DNA of 64,000 nucleotides, taken from assembly GCA_035530555.1 (NCBI GenBank), contig DATKUR010000013.1, positions 239-64,238 of the forward strand. The letters run 5' to 3'. Position 1 is the first letter of the stretch. The number at the start of each line of letters is the position of its first letter. Below the pieces are notes generated by a model, which saw only the letters and a program-made list of their open reading frames with translations, was not told the origin of the DNA and did not search any database. Made by a program: the position numbers and the translations under genes. This DNA comes from Candidatus Humimicrobiaceae bacterium (GTDB lineage: Bacteria; Patescibacteriota; Minisyncoccia; Minisyncoccales; DG-74-1). Below are positions 16,881 to 40,281 of the stretch, one piece after another.

Positions 16881-17873
16881 TTAAAATAAATGTTTATCAA
16901 GCAATTTCGCGCCCTCACCCGGCCGACAAACTATTGTTTCTATCACGCCTTCTAGACTCAAGAGTCTTTTATTGATTTCTTTTTCGTCTTTTTCCAGACA
17001 TAAAACCTTAACATTGGGCCCAGCGTCAATTGTGAAATAACATTTTAGCCCTTCCTCCCGCCAAGCTAAGACATTTTGGATGATTTCCATTGTTGCTGGA
17101 ATCCAGTAGATAATTGCCGGCTTGGTCGTTATCATCAGGGCGTGCATCTTAAGGCAATTGTGTTCTGCTGTTTGAGCGACTTTTTCAAAATCTCTTTCTT
17201 TTATCCCTTCTTTGATTGATTTTAAGTCATCGACTACTGTTTTGAGCCATCCTTCGTAATAAGGACATGTTCCAACGGTTTGGGCCATTCCAGCGCGGCT
17301 TGTCACCGGCTTTTTCCCTTTTTGAACAATTGTGGCAATCATCCGAAAATCCGGCCAGTAATCTCTATCAACGATGCTTTCGGCGTAGCTGTCCAAGCCG
17401 TCGGGCATTTCTCCACGATGCCATTCTACGAAGCCCCCAAAAATACTGCGACAAGCAGAACCAGACCCCTGTCTGGTAAGAATCGACAATTCTTTGGGTG
17501 ATAATTTTAGTCCTGCTGCGGCAGTCGCAGCAACCGTCAGTGCGGCAAAGCCGCTAGCGCTACTGGCTAAACCTGCCGCCACCGGAAAATTGCTTTCAGA
17601 AATAACTCTGGCTCGTTGTTTTATACCGGCCAAGCGGCTAATTCTGTCAATGTGGCCGTGGATATCTTTCTCGTCTTTTTGAAACTCTTCATCATTTATA
17701 ATAACGGTATGCTCTTTATATTTATCAGAGAATTCAACCGTGGTGGTGGTGGTCATACCATCACAAGTCATTGAAATATTACCGTTTTGAGGAAGGATTA
17801 ATTCCTTATCACGCTTGCCCCAATATTTGACCAAGGCGATATTGGCATTGGCAACAGCCGTGGCTTTCATCAT
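16881..17873 (-). CDS. mvaD: Diphosphomevalonate decarboxylase
   Basis: 330 aa. NIALVKYWGKRDKELILPQNGNISMT and the GLASSASGFAAL GHMP motif. Confidence 0.92.
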   Translation of the reverse strand: MMKATAVANANIALVKYWGKRDKELILPQNGNISMTCDGMTTTTTVEFSDKYKEHTVIINDEEFQKDEKDIHGHIDRISRLAGIKQRARVISESNFPVAAGLASSASGFAALTVAATAAAGLKLSPKELSILTRQGSGSACRSIFGGFVEWHRGEMPDGLDSYAESIVDRDYWPDFRMIATIVQKGKKPVTSRAGMAQTVGTCPYYEGWLKTVVDDLKSIKEGIKERDFEKVAQTAEHNCLKMHALMITTKPAIIYWIPATMEIIQNVLAWREEGLKCYFTIDAGPNVKVLCLEKDEKEINKRLLSLEGVIETIVCRPGEGAKLLDKHLF

Positions 17874-18853
17874 GATTTATTTTCTATTTTTAAACCTTGG
17901 TAATCAACATCAACCAAAACCGGCGTACCTCCGGCTTCTTTTATCGCTTTTTCTATCTCTTCTTTCTTCTCTCCTAGGGCGATAATACAGTCACCGACTC
18001 CGGCGCCGGATAATTTGGCGCCGGAGGCACCGACTTTTTGACAGGCCTCGATTAGTTTTTCAATGATTTCTGAAGAAACGCCGTATTCTACAGAGGGAGC
18101 TTTAAATTTTCTTAAAATTTCCTGGTTTTCGGTCATCAACCGGCCAACTTCTGGCCAGTTAGAATTCTCCATGGCTGTTTTTGCTTTTTCTACGATCTGC
18201 AAAATATCATCGTAAAGTTTTTCATAATACTCGGGGTTTTTCTCCATTTCTACTTTAACTGCCTTGACAATTTCCGAAGTACTGGCCTTAACGCCGGTAT
18301 AGCCGACTATTAAAGGAATGTTTTTAATTTCCAACGGCTCAATTTTTTTCCCGCCGGTTAAGAAATAAATCACTCCGCCGTAAATGGCCGCGGCAATATC
18401 AAAACCTGAACCCACGCTCTGAATATCTAAAACCGTTTTATAGGCCAAATCGAAAATTTCTTTCTTTTCCATTTTGACTCCAAAAAGTTCAGAAAGAGCT
18501 TTAATCGTACACACGGTTACCGCCGAACTTGAACCAAAACCGTATTTGGCCGAAAACTGACTTTCGGTTTTTATTTTAAACCCCGATTCAATATTATATT
18601 TTCTAAAAAAATTCTTAACCGCTTCCAAAACAAATCTAATCTCCTTCGGTTGCTCCTTATTTAAATCAGTTAAAGAAACGGTAAGGCCAGAAATCTTCAT
18701 CTCCGGCGCCTCAATTAGAATTTTATCTTCAGAAATTTTTTCTATTTCAACAAACAACCGCTGGGAAACCGCGGCAACCAAACAAGGCCGGTTGTAAACA
18801 ACGGCATGCTCTCCAAATAACATTAATTTCCCCGACGCGGAAACTTTTATCAT
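17870..18853 (-). CDS. mvk: Mevalonate kinase (GHMP kinase)
   Basis: 327 aa. SGKLMLFGEHAVVYNRPCL (GEH as in mevalonate kinases) and GFGSSSAVTV. Confidence 0.8.
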   Translation of the reverse strand: MIKVSASGKLMLFGEHAVVYNRPCLVAAVSQRLFVEIEKISEDKILIEAPEMKISGLTVSLTDLNKEQPKEIRFVLEAVKNFFRKYNIESGFKIKTESQFSAKYGFGSSSAVTVCTIKALSELFGVKMEKKEIFDLAYKTVLDIQSVGSGFDIAAAIYGGVIYFLTGGKKIEPLEIKNIPLIVGYTGVKASTSEIVKAVKVEMEKNPEYYEKLYDDILQIVEKAKTAMENSNWPEVGRLMTENQEILRKFKAPSVEYGVSSEIIEKLIEACQKVGASGAKLSGAGVGDCIIALGEKKEEIEKAIKEAGGTPVLVDVDYQGLKIENKS

Positions 18854-19018
18854 TTTTAATTCGTTAAATATAATTATTTAACTAGCCGATTAAAATCTCT
18901 TGTTTTAATCTTAATACCTTTTGATCGAATGTCAAACTCAAAAAATAAGCGAGTAATTTGAAAATAAATAGGTGGCAGCCGAAATGAACACCACTTATCA
19001 CACTCAACGTACTACGTC

Positions 19019-20020
19019 TTATTTCCCTTCCTCGTACTTCTTCATGGCTTTCTGCCATTCCCAGGCTTTTTTACCTGTAGGTCTCCAGCCCATCACTAAT
19101 TGCCTAAAATCTTCCCGATAATGGCTACTAAAATAGTCAACCGTTTCAATAGCTGAAGAAGCTAAATCATCTGAGACAGAAGCTATTTCTTCGTCGGTTA
19201 TCTTGATTCTTGAAGTGATCAATTCTATTGATTCCTTAGGGTCTAGCGGCGCCTTAATCTCCATCGTCTGCAAAATATTTCTACCTTTCTCATCTTTCTT
19301 CTCTAGGAGCAGGTGGACAATATCTTTTATCTTAAGATCGAAGCCGCGTAAAACGCCACGGACGAACTCTCGTTGAACTTCGTAGAGTGGATGAACAAGG
19401 GAATGCAACCTAAGAGGATAGATTTCTTCAGGATTAATAAGGGCTAAGCGATAGATACTTGCGATAGCAACCACTAGGCCTTCGTCTTTGTCGGGTTCAA
19501 ATTCAAAAGTCCGCCAATCACCTTTTTCATCGCGGAGACGATCCCCAGCCGCAAAACTACAACGTCGGGCAATTGCTCGAACTCCATTCTGCTCCATCTT
19601 ATCGGCAACAAAGAGAACAAAGCGGACTTTTTCCGCTAATGCCTCCGGAAACTTCTCCCTAGTTTCTGGGTCCGTCAACCATTTAGGATAATGACCATGC
19701 TTTTCAATAGCGTAGGTAATAGCCGCCCCTTCTTCTCTAGTTATGAGGCCGGCCCCCTCGAGAATCCGACGGGTTTCTTTGGCGCTGGCTCCTTCATCGC
19801 CCACTCCGGGCCCGCTGGGTGAACGGATAATATCATGAAACCAGCCGGCAGCGTAAGCTAACTCTTTTTCACGCTGAGTGAGCCCATAAATTTCTCCGAT
19901 CTTCTGAGTTAGCTCAGCAACTTTCCTAAGGTGAAGGGCACTGTGAGCTTCGGTCACTTCTAAGCTTGCCAGATACTGTACTGCCAGCCGGGCAATCTTT
20001 TTTTCCCACTCATCTCCCAT
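19019..20020 (-). CDS. HD-domain phosphohydrolase-family protein, paralog B (uncharacterised subfamily)
   Basis: H...HD...D pattern (AHSALHLRKV, WFHDIIRS, FVADKME). It aligns along its full length with 20906..21925. I prefer ATG 20020 (MGDEWEKKIARL, which matches the paralog's N-terminus) over the track start at 20080, which overlaps the HAD gene. Confidence 0.7.
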   Translation of the reverse strand: MGDEWEKKIARLAVQYLASLEVTEAHSALHLRKVAELTQKIGEIYGLTQREKELAYAAGWFHDIIRSPSGPGVGDEGASAKETRRILEGAGLITREEGAAITYAIEKHGHYPKWLTDPETREKFPEALAEKVRFVLFVADKMEQNGVRAIARRCSFAAGDRLRDEKGDWRTFEFEPDKDEGLVVAIASIYRLALINPEEIYPLRLHSLVHPLYEVQREFVRGVLRGFDLKIKDIVHLLLEKKDEKGRNILQTMEIKAPLDPKESIELITSRIKITDEEIASVSDDLASSAIETVDYFSSHYREDFRQLVMGWRPTGKKAWEWQKAMKKYEEGK

Positions 20021-20033
20021 AGTAAAATTATCG

Positions 20034-20789
20034 TTATGGCTTATTAAAAAAATATTTTGCCATCTCCAAGATATTTTCAAAAATAAAATCTGGCTTTTCT
20101 TTTTTTAAATGTATTTTCAGGCCCATTCCGCAGGTCACAGCTACCACTTTACACTGAGCATCCTTGACTGCCAATACATCAACAACCGAATCGCCCACAT
20201 AGATTGTTTCCTTTGATGGTATATTCAATTTTTTAATTATTTTAATAATTCCCTCTCCGGAAGGTTTCTTCTTTTTAACATCTGCTTCTGAAAGAATCAT
20301 TGAAAATCTTTTCAGGCCTATGTCGGACAAGTCTCTTGAAACAGACCTCGCACTTGCATTAGTAAATATCGCTAGTCTGAATTTTCTGGACAATAAATCT
20401 ACTGCCTTACTAACCCAAGGGTAAATCCTTATCAATTTTTTAGCCCCGGAGGAATTAAAAAACTCTTCATATCCTTCTTCTATTTTTTCACTAATTTCTA
20501 GCTCCTTCTTAGAAACTTTTCTTTTTATTAACTCATCTAAAAACTTTTCTGGTTCGTCTTTATTAATGATGCTATTTAACTTTAATCCAGTTTTTGATAC
20601 GGCCAAAAGGGCTTTTATTGCCTCGTGACTGTCGTTATATTTACCAATTCCCCGCAAATGCCAGACGTCGTCTGCTTTAAAACTATAACCAAGCCCGCAA
20701 GAACCAAATCCTCTTCTAAAACCTTCATTTATTGCCAGCGAAGAATCCCTAAAAACGCCGCCAACATCAAAAACAAAAAGATTTAACAT
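20034..20789 (-). CDS. HAD-IA-like hydrolase with an atypical motif I
   Basis: 251 aa. Motif I reads FVFDVGGVF (DxG instead of DxD). Motif III/IV reads KKKKPSGEG...YVGDSVVDV. It is AT-rich like the host genes, unlike its neighbours. Confidence 0.75.
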   Translation of the reverse strand: MLNLFVFDVGGVFRDSSLAINEGFRRGFGSCGLGYSFKADDVWHLRGIGKYNDSHEAIKALLAVSKTGLKLNSIINKDEPEKFLDELIKRKVSKKELEISEKIEEGYEEFFNSSGAKKLIRIYPWVSKAVDLLSRKFRLAIFTNASARSVSRDLSDIGLKRFSMILSEADVKKKKPSGEGIIKIIKKLNIPSKETIYVGDSVVDVLAVKDAQCKVVAVTCGMGLKIHLKKEKPDFIFENILEMAKYFFNKP

Positions 20790-20830
20790 GTTCTATTTTA
20801 TTTTAATAACTTCTAATTAAATAGCAAATT

Positions 20831-20869
20831 AAAAAATAAACAGGTGGTGTCCGCAAGCGAACACCACCT
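20831..20869 (-). terminator. Rho-independent terminator after HD paralog A
   Basis: On the minus strand: AGGTGGTGT-tcgcttgcgg-ACACCACCT (perfect 9-bp stem) followed by GTTTATTTTTT. A degenerate copy of the same sequence follows HD paralog B at 18961..18996. Confidence 0.75.
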
Positions 20870-20905
20870 ATTATGTTCTTAGCCAAACATTCAGTTTAGC
20901 TTTAT

Positions 20906-21925
20906 TTAGAACTTGCCCTCCATATAGTCTATCATACCTTGACGCCACTCGCGGGCTTTTTCACCCGCAGGAATCCATTTCAGCGCTAGGCGGTCAAGAT
21001 CTTCCTGGTAGCGGTGACTGAAGTATTCCACCGTCTCTAGAGCCGACGATGCTATGTCTTCTGAAGTACGAGCTACTGCCTCATCGACAATCCCGCTCTT
21101 CACAGTAATCAGCTTGGCTAAACCAGAGATATTCTCCAGTGCGGATATTTTCCTTACCTGAAGGATGTTTTCACCTTCACCGGTTTTTGTCTCCAGAAGC
21201 AGTCGGGCGATATCTTCCACGGTTAGATGTAATCCATGAAGAACACCGAGAACAAAATCTCGCTGAACCTCATAGAGAGGTCCGACAACCGGTTTTAATC
21301 TCAGAGGATAAATCTCCTCGGGGTTAATAAAGGCCAGTCGCAGAAGGCTTTCTATAGCGACGACTAGAGCCTCGTCCTTGTCGGGTTGAAACCCGAATTT
21401 GCGCCAGTCGCCTTTCTCGCTGCGGAGCCGATCACCAGCAACGAACTGGGAGCGCCGGGCAATCACTCTTACTCCGTTGGCCTCCATTTTGTCGGCGACG
21501 AACAGAGCAAAATGAAGCTTTTTCCCTAGTTCCTCCGGCACTATCTCTCTAGTCTCCGAGTCACTCCACCATTCAGGATAACGACCTTGCCTTGCAATCG
21601 CGTAGGCAATAGCCGCTCCTTCTTCCTCGTTTACGAGACCGGCTTCTCCGAGTATCCGGCGCGTCTCGTTGGCACTAGTTTTCTCGTCTCCAACTGTCGG
21701 ATCTTCTGTAGACGAACGAACCACATCGTGGAAACGGCCGGCCCCATAGTCCAGTTCGTTTTCTCGTTCAGTGAAGCCATAAATCGACCCCACCTTCTGA
21801 GTTAATTCGGCCACGTTCCCCAAATGAGAAGCACTATGAGCCTCAGAAACCCCGAGACCCATCTGCCGTCTCCTCTTGAGCTCTGCTTCTCCTAACCGAG
21901 CAATCTCCTCTTTCCAGTTTTTCAT
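20906..21925 (-). CDS. HD-domain phosphohydrolase-family protein, paralog A (uncharacterised subfamily)
   Basis: 339 aa. AHSASHLGNV, RFHDVVRS, FVADKME. Strong SD (AAGGAGGAGAT-ATG). 4-nt overlap with the upstream methyltransferase. Hand-counted sample lines give about 52-62% GC against about 33-38% in flanking genes. Confidence 0.7.
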   Translation of the reverse strand: MKNWKEEIARLGEAELKRRRQMGLGVSEAHSASHLGNVAELTQKVGSIYGFTERENELDYGAGRFHDVVRSSTEDPTVGDEKTSANETRRILGEAGLVNEEEGAAIAYAIARQGRYPEWWSDSETREIVPEELGKKLHFALFVADKMEANGVRVIARRSQFVAGDRLRSEKGDWRKFGFQPDKDEALVVAIESLLRLAFINPEEIYPLRLKPVVGPLYEVQRDFVLGVLHGLHLTVEDIARLLLETKTGEGENILQVRKISALENISGLAKLITVKSGIVDEAVARTSEDIASSALETVEYFSHRYQEDLDRLALKWIPAGEKAREWRQGMIDYMEGKF

Positions 21926-22962
21926 ATCTCCTCCTTTTTTGTTTTTTCCCCGACTGTTACCATTAGTAATCGGGAATCGGGTAAAAGCTGATGAGGGTTA
22001 CTAGTGATAACCCCTTGTTCTACTAGCCTTTCAAGCAGGGTAGAATTTACATCAAATCCTGCCTCTTTCATCTCCTCAATATATCTTTCAACCGGACGGT
22101 GACCTTCCAGGGGCCAAATTGAGTTCGGCCCCAGCCCCGTACCACTCTCCCTGAGGATCTGATGATATCCGAGCCAAAAGCTAGTAATATCCTTGTTCGC
22201 CTGCTCATCGAACCCAATTGATTCGGGTACGGAGCCACTTGGATAGTACTTGAGCCAATTCCTCAGGCCTGCTTCCTTTTCGGGCCAATCAAACGTTTGG
22301 AGAAAACGGTATACCCGAAAAGGATGCTCCCAGATTGAGTTATGCCAGTCTGCAAACACGGCAATCCCTCCAGGTTTAAGTACTCTATAATAGAGACCGA
22401 AAGGAATTTGGCTATGATGGTGGATTGAGGCTACGCCGATTAAAATATCGACGCTCTCATCTGCGATATACTGACTCATAATCAAGTCAGTATCACAGAT
22501 GATTCTATGCTTTATTTCGTTTTCCTCCATCATCTTCTTAGCCGCCTCAAGACTTGCTCTGGAAGGGTCCAGAAGCAAAAATCGAGATTTTGACTGGACA
22601 GCGGTCGGCAACTCCTTCCATATTGTAAGCGCTGACAGGCCGGGCCCCGCACCTACATCTAATATCAAAAATTCGTCACCGATAGGATATCTTCCCATTA
22701 TTGCCTTTACCACTTCGGCAGTTTTTTGCCGGAGTAAAGCCGGGTTATCGCCAAACCCTGCTTTTTTCGCGGCCTCGCTTACCAAAGCAAGTTGCCCTTG
22801 GTTACCTCCTTCCCATTCATCGCTATACAGTTCAACTACCCTCTCTTCGTCAATAGAAGATGGCAATCCCCAGGCACTGCGTGCATATTCAGGAGTTCGT
22901 GCAGGGGATCCCATCGGCATGGGCATTAGCGTCTCGTTGTGCCGGACATAATTATTGGCCAT
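21922..22962 (-). CDS. Class I SAM-dependent methyltransferase with about 95-aa N-terminal extension, substrate unknown
   Basis: 346 aa. Motif I is ILDVGAGPGLSAL and post-I is LLLDPS. AGGAGG SD lies 6 nt before the ATG. GC-rich. Confidence 0.8.
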   Translation of the reverse strand: MANNYVRHNETLMPMPMGSPARTPEYARSAWGLPSSIDEERVVELYSDEWEGGNQGQLALVSEAAKKAGFGDNPALLRQKTAEVVKAIMGRYPIGDEFLILDVGAGPGLSALTIWKELPTAVQSKSRFLLLDPSRASLEAAKKMMEENEIKHRIICDTDLIMSQYIADESVDILIGVASIHHHSQIPFGLYYRVLKPGGIAVFADWHNSIWEHPFRVYRFLQTFDWPEKEAGLRNWLKYYPSGSVPESIGFDEQANKDITSFWLGYHQILRESGTGLGPNSIWPLEGHRPVERYIEEMKEAGFDVNSTLLERLVEQGVITSNPHQLLPDSRLLMVTVGEKTKKEEI

Positions 22963-22998
22963 CTAGCGCCTCCTTTATCGTATTTTTATTTACTGCCA

Positions 22999-23052
22999 TT
23001 GTGACAGCTGTTTAGAAACTTCTCAATTAGAGCAGCCAAACAGCTGTCACAA
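22999..23052. repeat. Perfect 15-bp inverted repeat with a 24-nt spacer in the methyltransferase 5' leader
   Basis: TTGTGACAGCTGTTT (22999..23013) and AAACAGCTGTCACAA (23038..23052). Each arm also contains the self-complementary octamer ACAGCTGT. Confidence 0.9.
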
Positions 23053-23092
23053 CATGATAGATATTTAAACTTTTGAAAGAACTGTAATGCTT

Positions 23093-23121
23093 ATTATAAC
23101 TTTTTATTCTTAAATTGTCAA
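23093..23121 (-). promoter_or_regulatory. Consensus sigma70-type promoter for the methyltransferase/HD operon
   Basis: On the minus strand: TTGACA (23121..23116), a 17-nt spacer, then TATAAT (23098..23093). The predicted leader is about 120 nt and contains the inverted repeat. Confidence 0.7.
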
Positions 23122-23144
23122 GGATTTGTAAAACGCAGATTTTG

Positions 23145-23176: not shown

Positions 23177-23233
23177 TTATTTATTTGTAATAATCCTAAA
23201 ATCGGGTATTCCTCATTCTCTCCGTCTTCTTCT

Positions 23234-32130: not shown

Positions 32131-32133
32131 AGT

Positions 32134-33621: not shown

Positions 33622-34168
33622 ATGTTTTCTTTTTTTTGATAAAAAGTTTATCAAAAATAAATGAAAAAAATAAGCTAAAAGCGGGGGTAAAAATTAAAAC
33701 CGACGCTAACTGATTTTTCAAAAAAGGAAGGCCGGCAATGTAAGAAGTAATGAGCCCCTGGAAATTCATTGGATACATTCCGAAGGTTAACCACCAACCG
33801 AAATTCGTCCAAAGATAGAAAAATAAAACTGAAAGAATTCCTCCGCCGCTAATTTTCAAAAAATAATGCCTTGAGTCTCTCTTAAAAAAGATGCCAAAAA
33901 TGCCAATTAAAACGAAGACTGACCAGGTGAAAAAATAAACCGAGACGTTGCCAAAATAGAAATCCGAAAGAAAAATTATCAAAAGAGGAATAAGGGGAGC
34001 AAAAAAACCGCCCAAAAAAGAGCTCGAAAGCAAAGAAATAGCGGTCACCGCTTCAAGATTGGGGATACCAACTACTTTATTAAGAAAAATTTGTAAAACT
34101 ACCCCAAAAAGGATAACAAAAATTGCAAATAAAATCTTTTTTTTCGTCGGGGCTTGAAAAATTCCCAT
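33587..34168 (-). CDS. Polytopic membrane protein of unknown function
   Basis: 193 aa with about 5-6 hydrophobic helices. It overlaps the downstream radical SAM gene, so the two are probably co-transcribed. Confidence 0.6.
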   Translation of the reverse strand: MGIFQAPTKKKILFAIFVILFGVVLQIFLNKVVGIPNLEAVTAISLLSSSFLGGFFAPLIPLLIIFLSDFYFGNVSVYFFTWSVFVLIGIFGIFFKRDSRHYFLKISGGGILSVLFFYLWTNFGWWLTFGMYPMNFQGLITSYIAGLPFLKNQLASVLIFTPAFSLFFSFIFDKLFIKKKKTYENFAFVSKIS

Positions 34169-34191
34169 AAAAATTCTAAATTAAGGATACA

Positions 34192-34689
34192 ATGGAAACT
34201 TATTTTTTGCCAAGGGAGATGAGGTCGGAATTAAGAAAAATTTGGGGCATTCCTCTTTTTAATGGGAAAAAAAAGGTTCTTAATAAATTTCAGCAGTTTG
34301 CCCAAAAAAAGAGATTTAAAAAGGTAATTACCGTAGGCGATTATTGTTCTCTTACTTTACCTTCTGATATTAAAATTTTTGACGGAAAAATAAAGAGGGG
34401 GAAAGTAAGAAAGCTGCCAAAGTTCTCTCTTTATTGTAGCAATCCGCCAGGAACCATTCAAAAGGGAGTCTGGCTGATTATTAAAAAAGCGATTCAAAAT
34501 AAGGAAAATATTTTTATTGAGGGAGAAGAAGATCTTTTGGTTATCCCTACGGTCTTGCTTTCAGAAAAAAATACGGCTGTAATCTATGGCTTCCCCGATA
34601 AGGGAGTTTGTTTGATTGAAGTTTCGCCCCGCGTAAAAAAAACTTTTAAAGAACTCCTTAAGAAGTTTTCCTTAAAATGTGGCAAGTGA
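34192..34689 (+). CDS. DUF359-family protein, probable archaeal-type GTP-dependent dephospho-CoA kinase
   Basis: 165 aa. Family-like motifs VITVGDYCS, FDGKIKRG, NPPGTIQ, IEGEEDLLVIPTVLL and VIYGFPDKGVCLIEV. AAGGA SD lies 7 nt upstream of the ATG. Confidence 0.7.
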   Translation: METYFLPREMRSELRKIWGIPLFNGKKKVLNKFQQFAQKKRFKKVITVGDYCSLTLPSDIKIFDGKIKRGKVRKLPKFSLYCSNPPGTIQKGVWLIIKKAIQNKENIFIEGEEDLLVIPTVLLSEKNTAVIYGFPDKGVCLIEVSPRVKKTFKELLKKFSLKCGK

Positions 34690-35788
34690 CGCTTCCGCCG
34701 GTTCCGCCAACGTTATGGCAGAGGCCGATTTTAGGATTACCTTTAACTTGCCGCTTGCCGCATTCTCCCCTTAATTGATTAACGATCTCGTAAACTTGGG
34801 CTAATCCGGTGGCAGAGATCGGATGACCCTTAGCTTTTAAACCGCCGGAAGGGTTAACCGGCAACCGGCCGTCCAAATTAACCTTTCCTTGCCGGATTAA
34901 TTCTGCTCCTTTCCCGCTTTCGGCAAAACCCAAGTCTTCATAAGAGAATAATTCAACCGAAGTAAAGGCGTCGTGAATTTCAGCCACTTGAATATCTTCC
35001 GGCTTTATTTTAGCTTCTTTGTACGCCTGCTCGGCCGCCAACTCAGTCGCCTGGAAATGCCAAGGCTCTTTTCTGTTAAAGGTTAAAAGATAATCAGTAG
35101 CGAAACCAGAACCTAAAACTTCGATGTCAGTTTTTTCTTTTGTTAAAATTGCTGCGGCCCCTCCGTTGACCGATAAAGAGCAATCCATTAAACGAAAGGG
35201 AGAAGCAACAACTGGCGATTTCTTAATTTCTTCTAAAGAAACTTTCCTTTGATAGTAATAAGCCTTAGGGTTTAAGGCAGCGTTTTGGTGGTTTTTATAA
35301 GCAATCAAGGCCAAATCATCCATAGTGGCGCCATATTTCAGCATATATTGCTGCCAGACTAGGGCATTTTGAACCGGAAATAGAGTACCTTCTGGCTGCT
35401 CAATTACTCTCTCGGTGGCTGATAATATCCAATGAGCAGTCACCTCACCTTTGTTGTCAACTAGCTTTTCACCGGAAACAATTAAAATGTTATTAAACTT
35501 TTCCAGTTGTAAAGCCGTCCAGAGAGCCACTCCACCACCGGCACAAACCGAGGGTGTTTCAATGATCGGGACATTTGTCTTAAATAAATCAGCCAGAAAG
35601 GAAACCTTATGAGTCTGATGTTCGCTAAAACCTTCGGCGCTGGAAATACTGGTTAAAACAATTGCCTCAATCTGAGAAATCCTCATTTTGGCGCCTTCTA
35701 AGGCCTCAAGAGCGGCGACAGTTGCGAACTGCCACCAGGGTTCTTGAGAATAATCAAATTTTGTCATCCCTACTCCTTTGATATACAT
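34658..35788 (-). CDS. Thiolase-like acetyl-CoA acetyltransferase (archaeal/SCP-x type)
   Basis: 376 aa. Nucleophile context TPSVCAGGGVAL. C-terminal GLCHNVGGTGGS. Confidence 0.85.
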   Translation of the reverse strand: MYIKGVGMTKFDYSQEPWWQFATVAALEALEGAKMRISQIEAIVLTSISSAEGFSEHQTHKVSFLADLFKTNVPIIETPSVCAGGGVALWTALQLEKFNNILIVSGEKLVDNKGEVTAHWILSATERVIEQPEGTLFPVQNALVWQQYMLKYGATMDDLALIAYKNHQNAALNPKAYYYQRKVSLEEIKKSPVVASPFRLMDCSLSVNGGAAAILTKEKTDIEVLGSGFATDYLLTFNRKEPWHFQATELAAEQAYKEAKIKPEDIQVAEIHDAFTSVELFSYEDLGFAESGKGAELIRQGKVNLDGRLPVNPSGGLKAKGHPISATGLAQVYEIVNQLRGECGKRQVKGNPKIGLCHNVGGTGGSVTCHILRKTS

Positions 35789-35803
35789 ATATATAGCTTA
35801 GTA

Positions 35804-37597
35804 TTATAAGGACGTCCATCCGCTAATTAAAGTCCCGGGGCCCGTATGAGTACATATTACGGGCGAGGCTAAACCAATAAAGGGCACCTCAGCTTTTATT
35901 TCTTTCAACATCTGTCTTAGTTTCTCTGCTCCTTCTGGATTATCGGCATGTTGGATTATAACTCTAATTTTTTTCCCTTCTGATCTGACCTTTCGGCTTT
36001 CTTTTGAGATTTTTTTAAAAAGTGCTTCAGCCATATCTTTAGCAAAAGCTATTCCTCCCTCAGTTACTGCCCCATTTTTGATAGTTATTAAAGGATGAAG
36101 ATTTATTCTTTTTATTCTTCTTATCCAATTTGCCTGGGATTTGCTGGCTCTACCGCCAGCTTCTATCCATTTAGGGTCCTCAAAAATGACGTGGAGATGA
36201 GTCTGAGGAATCATTTTTTTTAACTCATCTAGAATATCATTAATCTCTCTTTGCCCTTGAATCATCTCAATAGCTTTCAAAACCAAGAGAGTTTGACTGG
36301 CCGCAGCCTGTAAAGAATCTAAAACATAAACTTTTTCCTTTTCCTCTTTCTCTAGCATTTCCCTCGCCTGGCAGGCCGAATTATAACAGCCAGAAACTTT
36401 GGAGGTTATGCTCAAACATAAAACCTTTTCAAACTTTCCTAACTGTTTTTTAAAAGCCGCCAAATAAAATTTTGGGGCAGGCTGAGAAGTCTTCGGAAAA
36501 GTTTTAATCTTTTGCCTATCAGCTTCTCTCATTTTTTGAAAAATATCTTCTCCGGGCAAATTCTCTCCCTCTGGCCAGTTAACAATGACATCAACTGTTT
36601 CAACCTGATATCTTTCTAAAACCTTCTCGGGCAATAAAACAATATTTCCTTCGGTAACAACGCCAATGGAAACTTTTCTGACTGATTCCTCGCCGGCCAC
36701 CTCTTTGGCCATATCTTCAAATCTTAAGTCTTGAATTTGCCCCATATTTCTTATTAGCTTTTTTACTTCATCGGGATAGTCCGTATGGATATGAACCTTG
36801 GCTTTGCTGCCAATCTGGACAATATCTATGGAATTACCTAGTTTCTTTAATTTTTCCTTGATCTCTTCTTCTCCAAACCTAGGGTTCTTGACCAAGGCAA
36901 TAATTTCGTAACGATGGGATAAAACCTGAACAAACCTCTTGATTTTTTCTGAGGGCCTTTCTTCTTTTTTTCTTTCTTTTCTTTCGCCCTCCAGGGCATC
37001 CAAATAACTTTCCAGAATTATTAAAAAACCCAAACCCCCGGCATCAACCACGTTGGCCTTTCTGAAAATTTCCATCTTCTCCCGGGTAGCCAAAAGAGCT
37101 TCTCTGGCTTTTTCGGTAGCTGTTTTTAAGATTTTGGTGATATTTTTTTCTTTTTCTGCTTCCTTCTTAAAGGTTAAAGCTGTTGCGTCAATAACGTCTA
37201 AAATTGTTCCTTCTTTAGGGCTTTGGATAGATCGCCGGGCCCGTTCAGCTCCTCCCTCAAAGGCAATAGATAGTTTTTTGGCATCAACCGGGTTTTTATC
37301 AAGTAAAGGCAGAAAACTGGCTAAAAAACCGACGTAAATCACGCCGGCATTGCCCTGGGCAGTAGTTAAAGCTCCATCCAAGGCTGCCTCAGAAACTTCT
37401 TTTAAATCTTTAAAGTCCTTTTTATCAATGGCTTCTTTTATCCCTGATAAGGTTTTAGCCAGATTGCTTCCGGTATCTTGGTCCGGAACAGGAAAGACGT
37501 TTATTTTATTGATCTGCTCTTTGTTCTTTTCAATCTTCTCATAGGACAAAAGGAGCATCTTCTTTAGTTCAGCTTGGCTAAGGTATTCCATGGCCAA
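35804..37597 (-). CDS. DhaL/DAK2 (FakA-type kinase) domain fused to a full DegV (FakB-type) domain
   Basis: 597 aa. The N-terminus has FPVPDQDTGSNLAKTL and AQGNAGVIYV (DAK2). Residues from about 310 to the end align throughout with the DegV at 40255..41133 (FQKMREA, KTSQPAPK, YNSACQA, DPKWIE, GKKIRV, GPGTLISG). Confidence 0.85.
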   Translation of the reverse strand: MAMEYLSQAELKKMLLLSYEKIEKNKEQINKINVFPVPDQDTGSNLAKTLSGIKEAIDKKDFKDLKEVSEAALDGALTTAQGNAGVIYVGFLASFLPLLDKNPVDAKKLSIAFEGGAERARRSIQSPKEGTILDVIDATALTFKKEAEKEKNITKILKTATEKAREALLATREKMEIFRKANVVDAGGLGFLIILESYLDALEGERKERKKEERPSEKIKRFVQVLSHRYEIIALVKNPRFGEEEIKEKLKKLGNSIDIVQIGSKAKVHIHTDYPDEVKKLIRNMGQIQDLRFEDMAKEVAGEESVRKVSIGVVTEGNIVLLPEKVLERYQVETVDVIVNWPEGENLPGEDIFQKMREADRQKIKTFPKTSQPAPKFYLAAFKKQLGKFEKVLCLSITSKVSGCYNSACQAREMLEKEEKEKVYVLDSLQAAASQTLLVLKAIEMIQGQREINDILDELKKMIPQTHLHVIFEDPKWIEAGGRASKSQANWIRRIKRINLHPLITIKNGAVTEGGIAFAKDMAEALFKKISKESRKVRSEGKKIRVIIQHADNPEGAEKLRQMLKEIKAEVPFIGLASPVICTHTGPGTLISGWTSL

Positions 37598-38287
37598 CTA
37601 TTTAAATTTTTCCTCTAGCTCTTTTAGAATTTTAGCTGCTAACTCTTTTCCGCCTAAGCCAAAAGAAAGACCCAAGGCAACTGAAATGGTAATTGCTACA
37701 CCGATGAAAATAACTAAAATCAAGGAGGGTGTTATTTTAAGCTGGTAGAGAATGGCCAAAATAGCAAAAAGCCAGATTGCCCAACGGATTGCCTTGCCTG
37801 AAAATCGCGAATAAGTTATTTTTTCCTTCTTCAGGGTACCAACCACAATCTTTTGAGAAAAATCAGCCAAAAAAACAGCCACAAGAAAAATTAAAATAGC
37901 AATAAAAATATTAGGATAATAACCAACCACTTTCCATAAAAATTGGCTGAAGGAAGTCAAGCCCAGGATTCTAGCGCTTAGAATTTCAGCAGCTATCGTC
38001 AAAAAAAGGATAACAAAAAACCATCTTACTATTTCGCCAAAAAACTTCGGAGCATTAAGCCGTGTATCTATTCTAGACAGAGATTCTTCTATGCCCATGC
38101 CCTTTAAAACTTGATTCAATCTAATTTTGCCCAGAAAATCGGCGGCTCTTTTTCCTAGCCATTGAGAAATAAGCCAGCCAACCAAGAAAAACAGAAAGGC
38201 TCCAAGGGCACAAAGCGGATAAGAAGCTGGAATTTGTATTAAGTATTTATAAACTTCTTCCCACATAAATAATTTATACGCTACCAT
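37598..38287 (-). CDS. Polytopic membrane protein (conserved-TM-helix type)
   Basis: 229 aa with 4-5 hydrophobic helices. No catalytic motif recognised. Confidence 0.55.
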   Translation of the reverse strand: MVAYKLFMWEEVYKYLIQIPASYPLCALGAFLFFLVGWLISQWLGKRAADFLGKIRLNQVLKGMGIEESLSRIDTRLNAPKFFGEIVRWFFVILFLTIAAEILSARILGLTSFSQFLWKVVGYYPNIFIAILIFLVAVFLADFSQKIVVGTLKKEKITYSRFSGKAIRWAIWLFAILAILYQLKITPSLILVIFIGVAITISVALGLSFGLGGKELAAKILKELEEKFK

Positions 38288-38838
38288 TTAGCGCGATTAA
38301 GCTTCAAATGATAACCGATTCTATTAGCAACTATATGTAATAAAAAGGTTAAAATAAAAAGGGTTATCCAGATTATTATCTCAATTTTTAAAATCGCTGT
38401 CAAGAAAATAGCCGAACCTATAACATAATTTGTCTGGTCGAATGGGATAAATCTGGCGCCCGGCGGCATCTTCAATCTTCGCTTGATAAAAGCAAAAAGT
38501 AGGTCGCCGAAAATTGCGCCGAGCGAAATCAAAAAGCCGAAAAGAAAAATATTAATCTGTTTATAATCTAATAGGGAAATTCTTTGGATTGCTGGAAATT
38601 GATAAAGATAACCCTGGACCAAGACCACCAAAAAACCGACACTCATCCCCAGTATTGCTCCCCGCCAGGATTTATGACTGCCGAGAATCGGCTGGCCTAA
38701 AAAATTTTTTCCGAAATCAATATCTTTATCTAAAAAATTAAAAAGGTTGGCCTTTCTGGCTAAAGGTGGGGCCATATTAGTAAAATAAGCGGGCAGGAAA
38801 AAGTAGAGACAAGATAAGATATATGTTAGAATACCCAT
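38281..38838 (-). CDS. carS: CarS-like (CDP-archaeol synthase family, formerly DUF46) membrane cytidylyltransferase homolog
   Basis: 185 aa. FFLPAYFTNMAPPLA, DIDFGKNFLGQPILGSHKSWRGAILG and GDLLFAFIKRRLKMPPGARFIPFDQTNY match the conserved blocks I recall for archaeal CarS. Confidence 0.72.
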   Translation of the reverse strand: MGILTYILSCLYFFLPAYFTNMAPPLARKANLFNFLDKDIDFGKNFLGQPILGSHKSWRGAILGMSVGFLVVLVQGYLYQFPAIQRISLLDYKQINIFLFGFLISLGAIFGDLLFAFIKRRLKMPPGARFIPFDQTNYVIGSAIFLTAILKIEIIIWITLFILTFLLHIVANRIGYHLKLNRAKW

Positions 38839-39600
38839 ATGAAATGCGATTTACACTGCCATACTGGCTATTCTTACGATAGCACAGCTGAGCCAGAAGA
38901 GATGATTGAGGCGGCGCTTCAAAAAGGGATAAACTGTCTGGCCATTTGCGACCACGGAGAAATTAAAGGCGCTCAGAAAGCAATCGAATACGCCAAAGAT
39001 AAGCCTATTTTAATTATACCGGGAATTGAAATAAAAAGTAAGGAAGGAGATATTTTGGGATTAAACATAAAAGAAGTTATTCCGAACAAATTATCAGCTA
39101 GTGAGACAATTAAAAAAATAAAGGGCTTAGGAGGGCTGGTAGTTATTCCCCATCCTTTTGGCTGGTCTTGCTCTTTTAGAGGAAACTTAGAGGACTTAAT
39201 TTCTAAAATAGACTGGTCCGAAGAGCTTCGTTCTTCTCGCGCTGAACCCAGTGATAACTGGGCGAAGAGGGAGAAGAAAACGAGGTTTTCTGCGACCGCC
39301 TCAGCTGGGGCCTTGGCAATTGAGATTTTAAATGCTTCAATATTCGGCCGTGGCAACAAAAAAGCTCTGATTTTCTCCCAAAAATACAACCTTTCTGTAA
39401 CAGCAGGATCCGACGCCCATTTCCCGAATTTTGTCGGCAGGGTCTATTTAGAAATTCCGGGCGATAATCTTTCTGTAGAAGAAGTTTTAAATCAGATAAA
39501 AAAAGGCGCTGCTAAAATCCATGGGAGAGAAGCTGACTGTTTGGAAAAAGCTGTCGATCATGTCAAAAGAAATATCGCCAGACTTAAAAATTTGATATAA
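38839..39600 (+). CDS. PHP-domain metal-dependent phosphoesterase carrying an in-frame insertion of about 33 aa
   Basis: 253 aa. MKCDLHCHTGYSYDS, AICDHG, VIPHPF and TAGSDAH motifs. The start codon abuts the carS start codon (CAT|ATG at 38836..38841). Confidence 0.85.
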   Translation: MKCDLHCHTGYSYDSTAEPEEMIEAALQKGINCLAICDHGEIKGAQKAIEYAKDKPILIIPGIEIKSKEGDILGLNIKEVIPNKLSASETIKKIKGLGGLVVIPHPFGWSCSFRGNLEDLISKIDWSEELRSSRAEPSDNWAKREKKTRFSATASAGALAIEILNASIFGRGNKKALIFSQKYNLSVTAGSDAHFPNFVGRVYLEIPGDNLSVEEVLNQIKKGAAKIHGREADCLEKAVDHVKRNIARLKNLI

Positions 39601-39681
39601 CGAAGCTTCGATTCGTTAAAATTGACCGTTCGATGAACTTTTAATTTACATTGTCTCTCGTTGAGTTTTCAGTTTAATTCT

Positions 39682-40281
39682 ATGTTAGAGGAAAAGAGAG
39701 AAAAATTTAAAAAAATTTCCAGCTGGACAGGAAATATTTTTTCTAAGTCTGGCTTAACGCCCAACCAATATACTCTAATCTCTTTTGTTTTTGTTTTAGT
39801 TGCTTTTTATTTTTTACTTAAGGAAAGGTTGGTTTGGGCCCTAATCTTCTTTTTATTGGCTACCTTTCTAGATTTTATTGACGGGGCAGTGGCAAAATTT
39901 TTGCAAAAAGAAACGAAAAAAGGTGCCTATTTGGACACCATTTGCGACCGCTACGTCGAGGGTATTATTTTATTAGGTTTTTTATTCTTATCGTTGTCTG
40001 ATTTTTTTCTACCGGCAAAAATCTGGATTTTTCTAGCTTTTTTCGGTTCTTTGATGACAACCTATGCTAAGGCAGCGGCTAAAGAAAAAGAGCTGGTAGG
40101 CCAAGAATTAAAAAAGGGCCTTTTGGGCCGAGCCGAAAGAATAATTTTAATTAGCCTGGCAATATCTCTTGGTATTTTTAATTTTTCCTGGATAATTTAT
40201 CCGATTGTTTTCCTGGCTATTTTTTCAAATATTACCGTTTTCCAAAGGATTTTTTTAGCTCTCACACCAAGCAACAATTAG
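39682..40281 (+). CDS. CDP-alcohol phosphatidyltransferase
   Basis: Motif DFIDGAVAKFLQKETKKGAYLDTICDRY, which fits DG(x2)A[RK](x8)G(x3)D(x3)D. I prefer ATG 39682 over the TTG at 39661. Confidence 0.85.
   Translation: MLEEKREKFKKISSWTGNIFSKSGLTPNQYTLISFVFVLVAFYFLLKERLVWALIFFLLATFLDFIDGAVAKFLQKETKKGAYLDTICDRYVEGIILLGFLFLSLSDFFLPAKIWIFLAFFGSLMTTYAKAAAKEKELVGQELKKGLLGRAERIILISLAISLGIFNFSWIIYPIVFLAIFSNITVFQRIFLALTPSNN

Follow-up and report, generated by a model that had tools for sequence, protein, structure and literature searches.

It is known that CPR (Candidate Phyla Radiation) bacteria can possess a mevalonate pathway with an archaeal-type thiolase (PMC6107057), and that Nealsonbacteria have an ACP-less fatty-acid and phospholipid pathway with PlsY and PlsC and without PlsX (PMC7242380); cell fractions rich in CPR contained acylglycerols only (PMC7242380). 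In one Parcubacteria genome, homologues of GGGPS and DGGGPS have been reported together (PMC7852524). The CarS enzymes of archaea have a strong preference for substrates with geranylgeranyl chains, acyl phosphatidate being much less favoured, and AfCarS fails to rescue a cdsA mutant of E. coli (reviewed in PMC9385802).

In the window (the whole analysed stretch of 64,000 nucleotides), we observed nearly all membrane-lipid genes of a CPR bacterium packed in a single block of ~35 kb, extending from about 7.3 to 42.4 kb. The source organism is an ultra-small CPR bacterium of the Parcubacteria/Paceibacteria class, as seen from the T4SS-pilin genes in the window and from homologues named Patescibacteria, Parcubacteria DG_74_1, Nealsonbacteria and Paceibacterales. 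Along the minus strand of the block the successive stop and start codons overlap, which implies co-transcription; the coordinates below refer to this strand unless marked plus. Judging from the sequences, we are somewhat inclined to regard the region as a conserved membrane-lipid supercluster of this organism and not as the canonical archaeal ether-lipid pathway.

The gene order is identical in six independent assemblies (JGI, ENA, Logan) and is retained in relatives at 45–90% protein identity, hence the arrangement is due neither to chance nor to mis-assembly. The same order was also observed in diverged genomes, complete chromosomes included. The conserved backbone consists of FakA/FakB, PlsY, PlsC, the ACP-less set (FabG, FabZ, FabK, ACC and thiolase), and a trio formed by a CarS-like protein, a PHP protein and a CDP-alcohol transferase. 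The variable isoprenoid block, situated between FabG and FabZ, comprises UbiA, GGR, a GGPP-type synthase, IDI-1, HMGS, HMGR, MVK, PMK and MVD. In three loci (L052, L055, L056) the backbone occurs without this block, and FabZ directly follows FabG. Complete Nealsonbacteria genomes carry an IDI–UbiA–IDS trio alone, apart from the phospholipid genes.

The canonical copy of PlsY (41820..42419; Pfam G3P_acyltransf, 172 bits) has 3/3 motifs intact, and paralogue b (8910..9587; 101 bits) mostly retains the catalytic motifs. Divergent paralogue a (7330..8019; 101 bits with the same model, and 95 bits with TIGR00023, under the cut-off of 137) has GWRK in place of GSGN in motif 1, a change shared by the L017 orthologue. 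The fatty-acid kinase FakA (35804..37597; Pfam Dak2, FakA-like_M, DegV) is accompanied by two DegV/FakB fatty-acid-binding proteins (7997..8899 and 40255..41133; Pfam DegV, 167 and 169 bits). The PlsC-type 1-acylglycerol-3-phosphate acyltransferase (13715..14368; Pfam Acyltransferase, 84 bits) keeps its position in relatives, and a HAD-family phosphatase (41137..41820; Pfam HAD, 83 bits) is likewise conserved, with PlsY on one side and on the other a backbone gene that varies among relatives (DegV, CarS or the CDP-alcohol transferase). Further backbone genes encode the acyl-CoA carboxylase set of carboxyltransferase, biotin ligase, BCCP and biotin carboxylase (9604..13712; Pfam Carboxyl_trans, 606 bits, BPL_LplA_LipB, Biotin_lipoyl, and CPSase_L_D2 with Biotin_carb_N/C), an NMO/FabK-like enoyl reductase (14365..15273; Pfam NMO, 227 bits), a FabA/FabZ-like dehydratase (16311..16829; Pfam FabA, 57 bits), a FabG-type 3-oxoacyl reductase (30237..30977; TIGR01830, 298.4 bits vs the cut-off of 297.75), and an archaeal-type thiolase (34658..35788; Pfam Thiolase_C_1, 150 bits; NF004720, 322 bits, under the model cut-off). 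The latter, a candidate acetoacetyl-CoA thiolase, is also found in relatives without the MVA block. In the sequence-only reading, three PlsY copies, PlsC and DegV/Fak were interleaved with the isoprenoid genes within 16881–40281. All these genes are real; however, the PlsY copies, PlsC and one DegV lie outside that interval, which contains, of the acyl-lipid genes, only FakA and the first bases of one DegV gene. Thus, the acyl genes flank the isoprenoid ones, over about 35 kb, rather than interleave with them.

The mevalonate genes recognized in that reading, from the thiolase to type 1 IDI, were all confirmed by profiles. These are MVD (16881..17873; TIGR01240, 318 bits vs the cut-off of 171), MVK (23234..24277; TIGR00549, 203 bits vs 163), class II HMGR (24331..25485; TIGR00532, 333 bits vs 260, the class I model giving only 47 bits), HMGS (25467..26630; Pfam HMG_CoA_synt_C, 64 bits, every NCBIfam equivalog model being under its cut-off), and IDI-1 (26635..27165; NF002995, 182 bits vs 127). 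The probable PMK is an MVK-like GHMP kinase adjoining MVD (17870..18853); it scores 132 bits with TIGR01220, under the cut-off of 166, and 205 bits with the MVK model, above the cut-off. In L009 and L010 its gene is placed between those of MVK and MVD. The prenyl synthase, GGR, UbiA, CarS-like protein, CDP-alcohol transferase and B12-binding radical SAM enzyme were likewise placed in their families by profiles. The trans-isoprenyl diphosphate synthase (27149..28246; Pfam polyprenyl_synt, 220 bits) is of the GGPP type by best hits; its top NCBIfam matches, IdsA (220 bits) and GGPP_syn (175 bits), are both under cut-off, and the context of its FARM motif is AHDGSIITDDVED. The GGR-family flavoprotein (28251..29393; TIGR02032, 195 bits vs 159) is indeed archaeal-like, the best solved relative being 3oz2, the Thermoplasma digeranylgeranylglycerophospholipid reductase (E 7.5e-34).

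The UbiA-superfamily prenyltransferase (29419..30237; Pfam UbiA, 82 bits) belongs to an uncharacterised clade and reached no NCBIfam equivalog cut-off in the profile search. Its Asp-rich motifs, N59-D63-D67 and D183-D187, do not vary, and the AF2 model (pLDDT 89) has the UbiA fold. In a neighbour-joining sketch without support values, where DGGGPS was sampled from methanogens only and the TACK type was left out, it nests in a mostly archaeal clade, with the nearest relatives from DPANN and other archaea. The neighbours of the archaeal relatives are genes for GT4 (with a PIGA signal that is weak), for GT2/GT21-like proteins and for flippase-like LPG_synthase_TM proteins; lipid-core genes do not adjoin them. 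In Thermococcus and Archaeoglobus they are extra paralogues, canonical DGGGPS being encoded elsewhere in those genomes, and the Thermococcus copy adjoins genes that on visual inspection look like speE and pdaD. The initial description of this UbiA as DGGGP-synthase-like is not supported, judging by the scores with DGGGPS models (25–35 bits vs cut-offs of 296–353), by the identity to canonical DGGGPS (about 19%, vs about 33% to the archaeal paralogues it nests within), and by grouping with these glycosyltransferase-adjoining paralogues.

The CarS-like CTP:phosphatidate-type cytidylyltransferase (38281..38838) agrees with the family proposed for it by Pfam (CarS-like, 108 bits) and by its sole match among solved structures, CarS 5guf and not CdsA, but falls short with NF003114 (132.8 bits, under the cut-off of 148). 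It has 533 homologues, in Parcubacteria contigs, with identities of 66–88% among the best 120 of the 533. The locus itself showed no CdsA. The PHP-family phosphoesterase (38839..39600, plus; Pfam PHP, PHP_C), a candidate PIP-type lipid-phosphate phosphatase, is invariably paired with the CDP-alcohol phosphatidyltransferase (39661..40281, plus). The latter is of the type using inositol phosphate: among solved structures it comes closest to PIP synthases and DIPP synthase, and it scores 133 bits with NF040950 (archaetidylinositol phosphate synthase) vs the cut-off of 180 and 95 bits with PIPS vs 170. The window showed no gene for an inositol-phosphate synthase. As the trio belongs to the backbone and recurs in relatives that have no UbiA/GGR/MVA block, the presence of CarS does not support the convergence of isoprenoid and glycerolipid synthesis for which it had been taken as a sign. 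Of the proposed set of late archaeal steps, GGR, the CarS-family protein, the archaetidylinositol-phosphate-synthase-like transferase and a UbiA near FakAB/PlsY/PlsC hold, whereas the assignment of the UbiA to DGGGPS is not supported.

Several other genes accompany the lipid genes. An accessory insert assigned by Pfam (19019..22962) encodes an HD protein, a HAD hydrolase, an HD paralogue and a SAM methyltransferase; the HD paralogue has no Pfam match, its region 20906–21925 being recognized as paralogous to 19019–20080 by eye, and its pair with the methyltransferase also occurs in L012. The DUF362 protein (31033..32130; Pfam DUF362, 37 bits) has an N-terminal zinc-ribbon/OB region of DUF35-like look: the top solved match of its N-terminal profile, 6esq_E 'Pfam DUF35', is weak (E 0.027), and Pfam gives no DUF35 match. 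The class B (B12-binding) radical SAM enzyme with DUF4070 (32134..33654; Pfam) reached no NCBIfam equivalog (Tes, 15 bits vs the cut-off of 450); its gene is accessory, being present in L017 and not in L012. The DUF6580 membrane protein (33587..34168; Pfam DUF6580, 99 bits) is probably cobalamin S-component-like and matches (E 3e-4) the chain 6fnp_A from the ECF-CbrT vitamin B12 transporter (PMC5997447). The DUF359 protein (34192..34689, plus; Pfam DUF359, 92 bits), opposite the thiolase, is conserved in L009, L011, L012, L052, L053, L055 and L056, and the membrane protein with an MS-channel TM helix motif (37598..38287; Pfam MS_channel_1st_1, 38 bits) keeps its place between CarS and FakA in relatives.

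We infer the substrates and products of all these enzymes as follows. FakA with the DegV/FakB proteins would convert scavenged fatty acids to acyl-phosphate, and PlsY and then PlsC would acylate glycerol-3-phosphate to phosphatidate. Some de novo synthesis might be added by the ACP-less set, that is, the acyl-CoA carboxylase, the archaeal-type thiolase with its DUF35-like/DUF362 partner, FabG, and the FabZ-like and FabK-like enzymes. Phosphatidate would be activated by the CarS-family cytidylyltransferase, which, given the archaeal preference for geranylgeranyl substrates, would need a change of specificity to act on the acyl line; the CDP-alcohol transferase and then the adjacent PHP phosphatase would install an inositol-type head group. 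The isoprenoid block may supply IPP for bactoprenol and prenylate a membrane acceptor with a (partly reduced) C20-type chain; the accessory pair of the B12-radical SAM enzyme and the CbrT-like protein possibly serves to methylate the chain.

There are two main variants for the acceptor of UbiA. If it is a glycerol-phosphate lipid, such as the lysophosphatidate made by PlsY, which is our preferred, if tentative, guess, the product would be a hybrid acyl/prenyl lipid sharing the head-group module; such a glycerophospholipid is a live and exciting possibility. Alternatively, UbiA and GGR might make not a glycerolipid but a prenyl- or polyprenyl-phosphate-linked carrier, a glycolipid anchor of an envelope glycan or another prenylated small molecule, the head-group module being acyl-only. 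We consider this rather unlikely, although it would agree with the glycosyltransferase and flippase-like neighbours in archaea, the separate Nealsonbacteria trio, the CarS trio occurring without UbiA, and the acylglycerols of the CPR-rich fractions (PMC7242380). On the other hand, in every CPR locus examined UbiA has no adjoining glycosyltransferase; phospholipid genes surround it in the window as well as in the closest relatives, and it has a stop/start overlap with FabG; and the solved decaprenyl-phosphate phosphoribosyltransferase is the least similar of the UbiA folds (TM 0.61, 10–11% identity).

The canonical ether-lipid pathway (GGGPS, a DGGGPS-like UbiA, CarS and archaetidylinositol-phosphate synthase, with GGR) cannot start without GGGPS. 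With a GGGPS query confirmed to be identical to 2f6u, we found no GGGPS or G1PDH homologues in the window, as had already been noted there, or in 51 related loci (L001–L051), the best E-value being 0.06. That GGGPS, and perhaps G1PDH, are encoded elsewhere is improbable: almost all other lipid genes are in the supercluster, the UbiA is not DGGGPS by model scores or tree, and its Thermococcus and Archaeoglobus relatives are extra paralogues. Still, the best matches of the CarS-family, GGR and AIPS-like proteins are archaeal, the two homologues do co-occur in the Parcubacteria genome mentioned above (PMC7852524), and Cloacimonetes are likewise without G1PDH, yet make the enzymes.

Slightly less probable still is that the archaeal-type enzymes salvage or remodel lipids of an archaeal host, the CarS-like enzyme re-activating archaetidic-acid-like lipids and the transferase swapping head groups. 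Related Nealsonbacteria and Paceibacteria are attached to methanogens (10.1101/2022.04.20.488981; PMC10936435), CarS enzymes are selective for isoprenoid chains, CarS-like genes persist in relatives lacking the isoprenoid block at the locus, and UbiA has its nearest relatives in DPANN and other archaea. However, a Nealsonbacterium was able to grow on lysate of E. coli, which argued against its needing lipids from archaea, the locus has a full FakAB/PlsY/PlsC fatty-acid line, and no lipid importer was identified. Finally, an assembly or binning artefact joining archaeal and bacterial DNA is hardly credible, although one NCBI MAG gives the label 'Candidatus Humimicrobiaceae' to proteins that match those of the window at 100% identity, so that binning labels are unreliable: the gene order recurs in the six assemblies and in diverged genomes, some of them complete chromosomes, the contig carries NusA, PNPase, ClpP and CPR pilins as bacterial hallmarks, and there is no sharp compositional break.

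Compared with the known systems, both the mevalonate genes and the ACP-less fatty-acid set have been described for CPR before. As the first ether-forming enzyme is absent and the key prenyltransferase comes from an uncharacterised family, the block does not amount to an ordinary lipid pathway of archaea; by its gene content, the region rather appears to be a non-canonical lipid supercluster, where an isoprenoid branch stands beside archaeal-type head-group enzymes and bacterial fatty-acid salvage.

Nearly all of the genes named in the sequence-only reading were confirmed by the ORF listing and the profile searches. The gene observation stands with corrected coordinates. Its interpretation as a whole is partly supported; the DGGGPS-like label given to the UbiA protein is not. 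The acyl-lipid genes, described as interleaved within 16881-40281, are mostly situated outside this interval, namely three PlsY copies (7330-8019, 8910-9587 and 41820-42419, all -), PlsC (13715-14368, -) and two DegV genes (7997-8899 and 40255-41133, both -). The true extent of the unit is approximately 35 kb, from 7.3 to 42.4 kb, and co-transcription is suggested by frequent overlaps of a stop codon with the next start codon. Pfam architectures make the FakAB-PlsY-PlsC set complete: FakA (35804-37597, -) with the Dak2, middle and DegV-like domains, FakB/DegV, PlsY and PlsC. The fatty-acid genes comprise an acyl-CoA carboxylase set (9604-13712, -), a FabK-like gene (14365-15273, -), a FabZ-like gene (16311-16829, -) and a FabG-type reductase (30237-30977, -).

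The three PlsY copies are not equivalent. In the canonical copy at 41820-42419 all three motifs are intact. In the copy at 7330-8019 (-) the acyl-phosphate-binding motif GSGNxGxTN is changed to GWRKxSGSN (GSGN to GWRK in motif 1) and a conserved His is replaced by Asn; the same motif change is kept at 55% identity in an orthologue (19237-19842 of the related locus L017). The substrate of this copy may differ from acyl-phosphate. Between the FabZ-like and FabK-like genes there is an ornithine cyclodeaminase/mu-crystallin family gene (15279-16296, -), whose location is kept in L017. In the window it is broken into two ORFs, 15589-16296 covering profile positions 5-226 and 15279-15554 covering positions 239-313; either the reading frame is interrupted by a frameshift or sequencing error, or the gene is a pseudogene.

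To compare the window with related loci, we combined a tblastn map of the window proteins with precomputed annotations, and two layers could be distinguished. The first half of the backbone, found in many Parcubacteria, has the order UPF0102, (PlsY, HAD), DegV, CDP-alcohol transferase, PHP, CarS-like, membrane protein, and the second half has the order FakA, (PlsY, UppS), thiolase, DUF359, DUF362, (BioY), FabG, FabZ-like, FabK-like, PlsC, acyl-CoA carboxylase, brackets denoting optional genes. In three loci (L052, L055, L056) the FabZ-like gene directly follows FabG. In the window and in five others (L009-L012, L053) the isoprenoid block is situated between them, with the order UbiA, optionally geranylgeranyl reductase (GGR) or a 314-319-aa protein, then isoprenyl diphosphate synthase, IDI, HMGS, HMGR, MVK, PMK, MVD. 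Complete Nealsonbacteria genomes have only the IDI-UbiA-synthase trio, located elsewhere. Thus, the CarS-like/PHP/CDP-alcohol transferase trio travels with the fatty-acid genes and not with UbiA, and UbiA keeps to the genes of isoprenoid supply.

The 314-319-aa protein, encoded at 10821-11780 of L009 and 10899-11843 of L053 (47% identity), has a faint squalene-hopene-cyclase C-terminal signal and no homology to anything in the window. In L009 its immediate neighbours are UbiA on one side and the synthase on the other; in L053 it precedes GGR and follows an inserted LexA/methyltransferase gene. The L053 synthase, running from 13088 to the locus end, contains an intein with a LAGLIDADG endonuclease domain, giving a product of 818 residues.

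Of the complete mevalonate route that had been claimed for the window, HMGS, HMGR, MVK, MVD and IDI are borne out. The curated cut-offs are exceeded by class II HMGR (24331-25485, -; TIGR00532, 333 bits against 260), MVK (23234-24277, -), MVD (16881-17873, -; TIGR01240, 318 bits against 171) and type 1 IDI (26635-27165, -), and HMGS (25467-26630, -) exceeds the Pfam gathering score only. The GHMP kinase at 17870-18853 (-) is the probable PMK: it scores 131.6 bits against the cut-off of 165.7 in TIGR01220 and also passes the MVK model, and the assignment is supported by its position between MVK and MVD in the relatives. A trans-isoprenyl diphosphate synthase (27149-28246, -) and an archaeal-type thiolase (34658-35788, -) are also encoded in the window. 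Between PMK and MVK there is an accessory insert (19019-22962, -), where a HAD hydrolase is bracketed by two paralogous HD-domain proteins, one of them invisible to Pfam, and followed by a SAM methyltransferase; the methyltransferase/HD-paralogue pair is found again in Parcubacteria DG_74_1 (L012). The 339-aa ORF at 20906-21925, which has no Pfam match, was considered as a missing ether-forming enzyme and rejected, as it has no solved relative and is a paralogue of the neighbouring HD-domain protein.

The thiolase neighbourhood resembles the archaeal thiolase/HMGS/DUF35 complex (6esq, 6et9) in part. Thiolase and HMGS are both present, and the neighbouring DUF362 protein (31033-32130, -) carries in its N-terminal 110 residues a CxxC...CxxC zinc ribbon and an OB-like stretch. 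Unlike in the complex, the DUF35-like part is fused to DUF362, and the match is weak: the top solved match of a profile of seven orthologous N-termini is the DUF35 chain 6esq_E (E 0.027), and the Pfam test of the N-terminus for DUF35 was negative. The thiolase/DUF362 pair is also found in relatives having no HMGS within the 10 kb examined on either side, and hence its role may lie in fatty-acid synthesis independent of ACP as much as in the mevalonate route. The DUF359 gene (34192-34689, +) overlaps the thiolase 3' end on the opposite strand, an arrangement kept in all relatives examined; the archaeal GTP-dependent dephospho-CoA kinase belongs to the DUF359 family.

A B12-binding radical SAM enzyme (32134-33654, -) adjoins a DUF6580 membrane protein (33587-34168, -). 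The radical SAM enzyme approached no cut-off as Tes (14.9 bits against 450) or as a hopanoid methylase (HpnR, 47 against 650), and the other lipid models gave 55 bits against 578 (HpnJ) and 69 against 360 (rSAM_ladder_B12). One chain of 6fnp, the entry of the vitamin B12 transporter ECF-CbrT, is matched by DUF6580 (E 3e-4), which fits the adjacency of this protein to a B12-dependent enzyme. No other part of the window is as low in G+C as this pair (32134-34168; 0.34), which looks like a mobile accessory module, since it is present in L017 and absent from the closer relative L012.

The UbiA protein (29419-30237, -) retains the Asp-rich motifs N59-D63-D67 and D183-D187, invariant among 21 sequences. 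Its AlphaFold (AF2) model has the UbiA fold (pLDDT 89.4), with AfUbiA, MjDGGGPS, ApUbiA and UBIAD1 as Foldseek matches. The motifs and the model argue for a competent enzyme of the UbiA superfamily. The acceptor could not be read from the predicted structure and the fold search: the model is confident, yet all UbiA folds score alike. The proposed resemblance to DGGGPS was contradicted both by the curated models (34.8 bits against the cut-off of 353 in PRK12883 and 25.5 against 296 in PRK12882) and by phylogeny. The sequence match to MjDGGGPS (6m31) has an E-value of 0.29 only. In a neighbour-joining tree without support values, where the sampled DGGGPS were of the methanogen type and TACK-type ones were left out, the clade is separate from methanogen DGGGPS, with approximately 19% identity to these canonical enzymes versus approximately 33% to the archaeal relatives. 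The proteins from the Candidate Phyla Radiation (CPR) nest in this tree among those of Aenigmatarchaeota, Altiarchaeota, Bathyarchaeota, Thermococci, Archaeoglobus and Nitrososphaerota.

A profile search of 1.84 billion representatives yielded only 65 clusters at E <= 1e-30, and the distant relatives from this search and the cluster look-up bear generic names only. As the archaeal relatives do not reach any curated cut-off either, and the names are all generic, the clade appears to be uncharacterised. The Thermococcus member adjoins genes that we read by eye as the polyamine genes speE and pdaD, and on account of these neighbours it is taken as an extra paralogue. Archaeal members of the clade (L023, L024, L028, L041, L044, L045, L050; Aenigmatarchaeota, Bathyarchaeota, Thermococci, Archaeoglobus and Nitrososphaerota) are consistently found beside a GT4 gene with a weak PIGA signal, often together with GT2 and LPG_synthase_TM genes, and the UbiA of L045 (511 aa) carries an additional membrane domain fused to its C-terminus. 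These archaeal loci look like an uncharacterised glycolipid or glycan locus.

For GGR (28251-29393, -), the proposed geranylgeranyl reductase identity is substantiated at the family level (TIGR02032, 195 bits against 159); the equivalog models of the DGGGPL reductase are far below the cut-off. Among solved structures its closest relative is 3oz2 (E 7.5e-34), the digeranylgeranylglycerophospholipid reductase of Thermoplasma. The CarS-like protein (38281-38838, -) scores 108 bits against the gathering score of 22 in the Pfam CarS-like family and 132.8 bits, slightly below the cut-off of 148, in the NCBIfam equivalog; ApCarS is its only solved-structure match (E 1e-5). It has 533 homologues, the best 120 of which share 66-88% identity, and is common in Parcubacteria. 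No CdsA with a full-length CTP_transf_1 domain was found among the scanned window ORFs, the only match being a partial one (28 bits) inside the CarS-like protein. A small membrane protein (37598-38287, -) lies on one side of the CarS-like gene, and on the other the PHP phosphoesterase (38839-39600, +) and the CDP-alcohol transferase (39661-40281, +). The transferase scores 132.7 bits against the cut-off of 180 in the model of archaetidylinositol-phosphate synthase (AIPS, NF040950) and 94.8 against 170 in the model of bacterial phosphatidylinositol-phosphate synthase (PIPS). The subsequent phosphatase step could plausibly be assigned to the adjoining PHP protein. The window showed no inositol-phosphate synthase gene.

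In the working that we infer, substrates and products included, FakA/FakB would activate fatty acids for esterification by PlsY and PlsC, and the resulting phosphatidate would be activated by the CarS-family enzyme to receive an inositol-phosphate-type head group. The mevalonate block would feed the GGPP-type synthase, and GGR together with the orphan UbiA would place a C20-type chain on a membrane acceptor. We tentatively favour a glycerol-phosphate lipid as this acceptor, which would give a hybrid acyl/prenyl lipid.

Alternatively, the UbiA product could be a carrier or of a glycolipid type, as one might expect from the GT4, GT2 and flippase-like genes that adjoin the archaeal relatives; in the window the UbiA gene is flanked by GGR and the FabG-type reductase, and we regard this alternative as somewhat unlikely.

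If the locus encoded the canonical archaeal ether-lipid pathway, GGGPS and G1PDH should accompany the CarS-family, GGR-family and AIPS-like members and the GGPP-type synthase, all of which are present. The sequence-only reading reported neither enzyme in the window, and we agree. A phmmer search of every stop-to-stop ORF of the window and 51 related loci (L001-L051), covering unannotated ORFs as well, retrieved nothing: AfGGGPS (the query sequence being 100% identical to PDB 2f6u) and Geobacillus PcrB gave a best E-value of 0.06, on unrelated TIM barrels, and a presumed M. jannaschii G1PDH sequence a best E-value of 0.35. There is no PcrB Pfam domain in any annotated locus and no Fe-ADH or DHQ-synthase Pfam match in the window. 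With G1PDH and GGGPS absent from the locus and the window UbiA not being a DGGGPS, the canonical route is improbable.

Salvage of host lipids would assign the CarS-family enzyme to lipids obtained from outside. Archaeal CarS selects the chain type, preferring geranylgeranyl over acyl, and is indifferent to the ether or ester linkage and to the G1P or G3P backbone, and an E. coli cdsA mutant is not rescued by AfCarS (PMC9385802). This published specificity argues against a simple role as a CdsA substitute and is compatible both with salvage and with a hybrid lipid. The locus itself has a complete acylation set, and we consider salvage slightly less probable still than the canonical route.

Finally, one NCBI MAG with the name 'Candidatus Humimicrobiaceae bacterium' contains proteins that match those of the window at 100% identity, which might suggest an assembly artefact, yet the exact gene order recurs in six independent assemblies, and this synteny together with the CPR marker genes rules out a chimera for practical purposes. 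The label itself is probably due to mis-binning, as all close relatives and the marker genes point to Parcubacteria/Patescibacteria. The nearest UbiA and CarS-like homologues bear the names Patescibacteria, Parcubacteria bacterium DG_74_1, Paceibacterales or Nealsonbacteria. NusA, PNPase and ClpP of the window are bacterial, and two of its genes encode T4SS pilins of the kind typical of CPR bacteria.

These pilin-domain genes (44681-45103 and 60653-61753, both +), a useful taxonomic marker, and a 1158-aa protein without any Pfam match (56488-59964, +) are typical of the CPR surface apparatus. Another protein without a Pfam match, of 736 aa (48176-50386, +), is extremely Glu/Lys-rich, with a polyproline stretch and a C-terminal membrane anchor; its gene contains purine-rich tandem repeats (48518-48775) and explains why GC skew and AT skew are extreme at 48-50 kb. 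At the other end of the window, approximately 2.4 kb (553-2959) of this otherwise densely coding genome hold no ORF longer than 84 codons, with G+C slightly above average, and an Rfam scan of 0.55-2.96 kb produced no credible match even at the lax threshold.

Returning to the hybrid acyl/prenyl lipid, its strongest form would be a true glycerophospholipid across the lipid divide. The first chain would be attached to glycerol-3-phosphate by PlsY or by a conserved motif-altered paralogue, the orphan UbiA would O-prenylate the free hydroxyl with geranylgeranyl diphosphate, and GGR would saturate the chain. The CarS-family enzyme, if isoprenoid-selective and blind to ether or ester linkage and to stereochemistry, would then activate the product for an inositol-phosphate head group, and GGGPS and G1PDH would be unnecessary. 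All these steps taken together are unlikely.

The locus bears on two matters: the usual view that CPR bacteria cannot produce membranes of their own, and the lipid divide that separates archaea from bacteria, a central puzzle in the study of early evolution. A near-complete lipid toolkit is maintained in at least one CPR lineage, with its genes physically linked and probably transcribed together. In it, the CarS family, GGR, an AIPS-like transferase and a UbiA of an archaeal clade are integrated with fatty-acid salvage of the bacterial type. As a compact clonable gene set, it allows one to ask whether a CarS-family enzyme can serve acyl or hybrid lipids, and what is made by a whole UbiA clade common to DPANN, Thermococci and other archaea. 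If the hybrid glycerophospholipid is real, it would be a natural phospholipid of mixed type; if not, the locus still fills two CPR gaps, namely where acyl-phosphate comes from and which enzyme carries out CDP activation. Archaeal-type lipid genes in bacteria are already known, and two of the three modules have been published for CPR; for the combination of UbiA, GGR, CarS-like and AIPS-like genes in CPR we found no earlier description in the literature.

The acyl module is close to that of Nealsonbacteria, for which Probst et al. 2020 (PMC7242380) described near-complete, ACP-less fatty-acid and phospholipid sets. Both have FAS-II homologues without ACP, and PlsY and PlsC without PlsX or PlsB. 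In the window, in contrast, the set is physically joined to the head-group and isoprenoid modules, and its FakA/FakB is an acyl-phosphate route not found in that study. In the CPR-rich cell fractions of the same study only acylglycerols were found, with many lysolipids, and isoprenoid ethers followed archaea only.

The mevalonate module agrees with the CPR pathway of Hoshino and Gaucher 2018 (PMC6107057), which has an archaeal-type thiolase, PMK, MVD and IDI-1, in that thiolase, HMGS, MVK, PMK, MVD and IDI-1 are clustered with an isoprenyl diphosphate synthase. There, however, synteny is mainly with cis-IPPS, whereas the window neighbours are a trans-synthase, GGR and UbiA; likewise, CPR HMGR in that survey is of class I only, class II being completely absent, whereas that of the window is of class II (TIGR00532). 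The head-group module recalls the PIPS route of actinobacteria and the AIPS route of archaea, since the transferase best matches AIPS, PIPS and DIPP synthase and a phosphatase gene is adjacent, but the transferase is below both equivalog cut-offs and the phosphatase belongs to the PHP family.

The only well-studied bacterial case is that of Cloacimonetes, which have GGGPS and DGGGPS without CarS or G1PDH (Villanueva et al. 2021, PMC7852524; one Parcubacteria genome with both GGGPS and DGGGPS is also mentioned there). Similarly to the window, the Cloacimonetes/FCB set places a UbiA-family enzyme, a polyprenyl synthase and GGR beside bacterial fatty-acid and ester-lipid genes, lacks G1PDH and raises the question of mixed membranes. 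The combination is nevertheless different: Cloacimonetes have GGGPS together with a DGGGPS near the TACK archaeal enzymes, whereas the window has no GGGPS, a UbiA of another clade, CarS-family and AIPS-like genes, and IPP from mevalonate.
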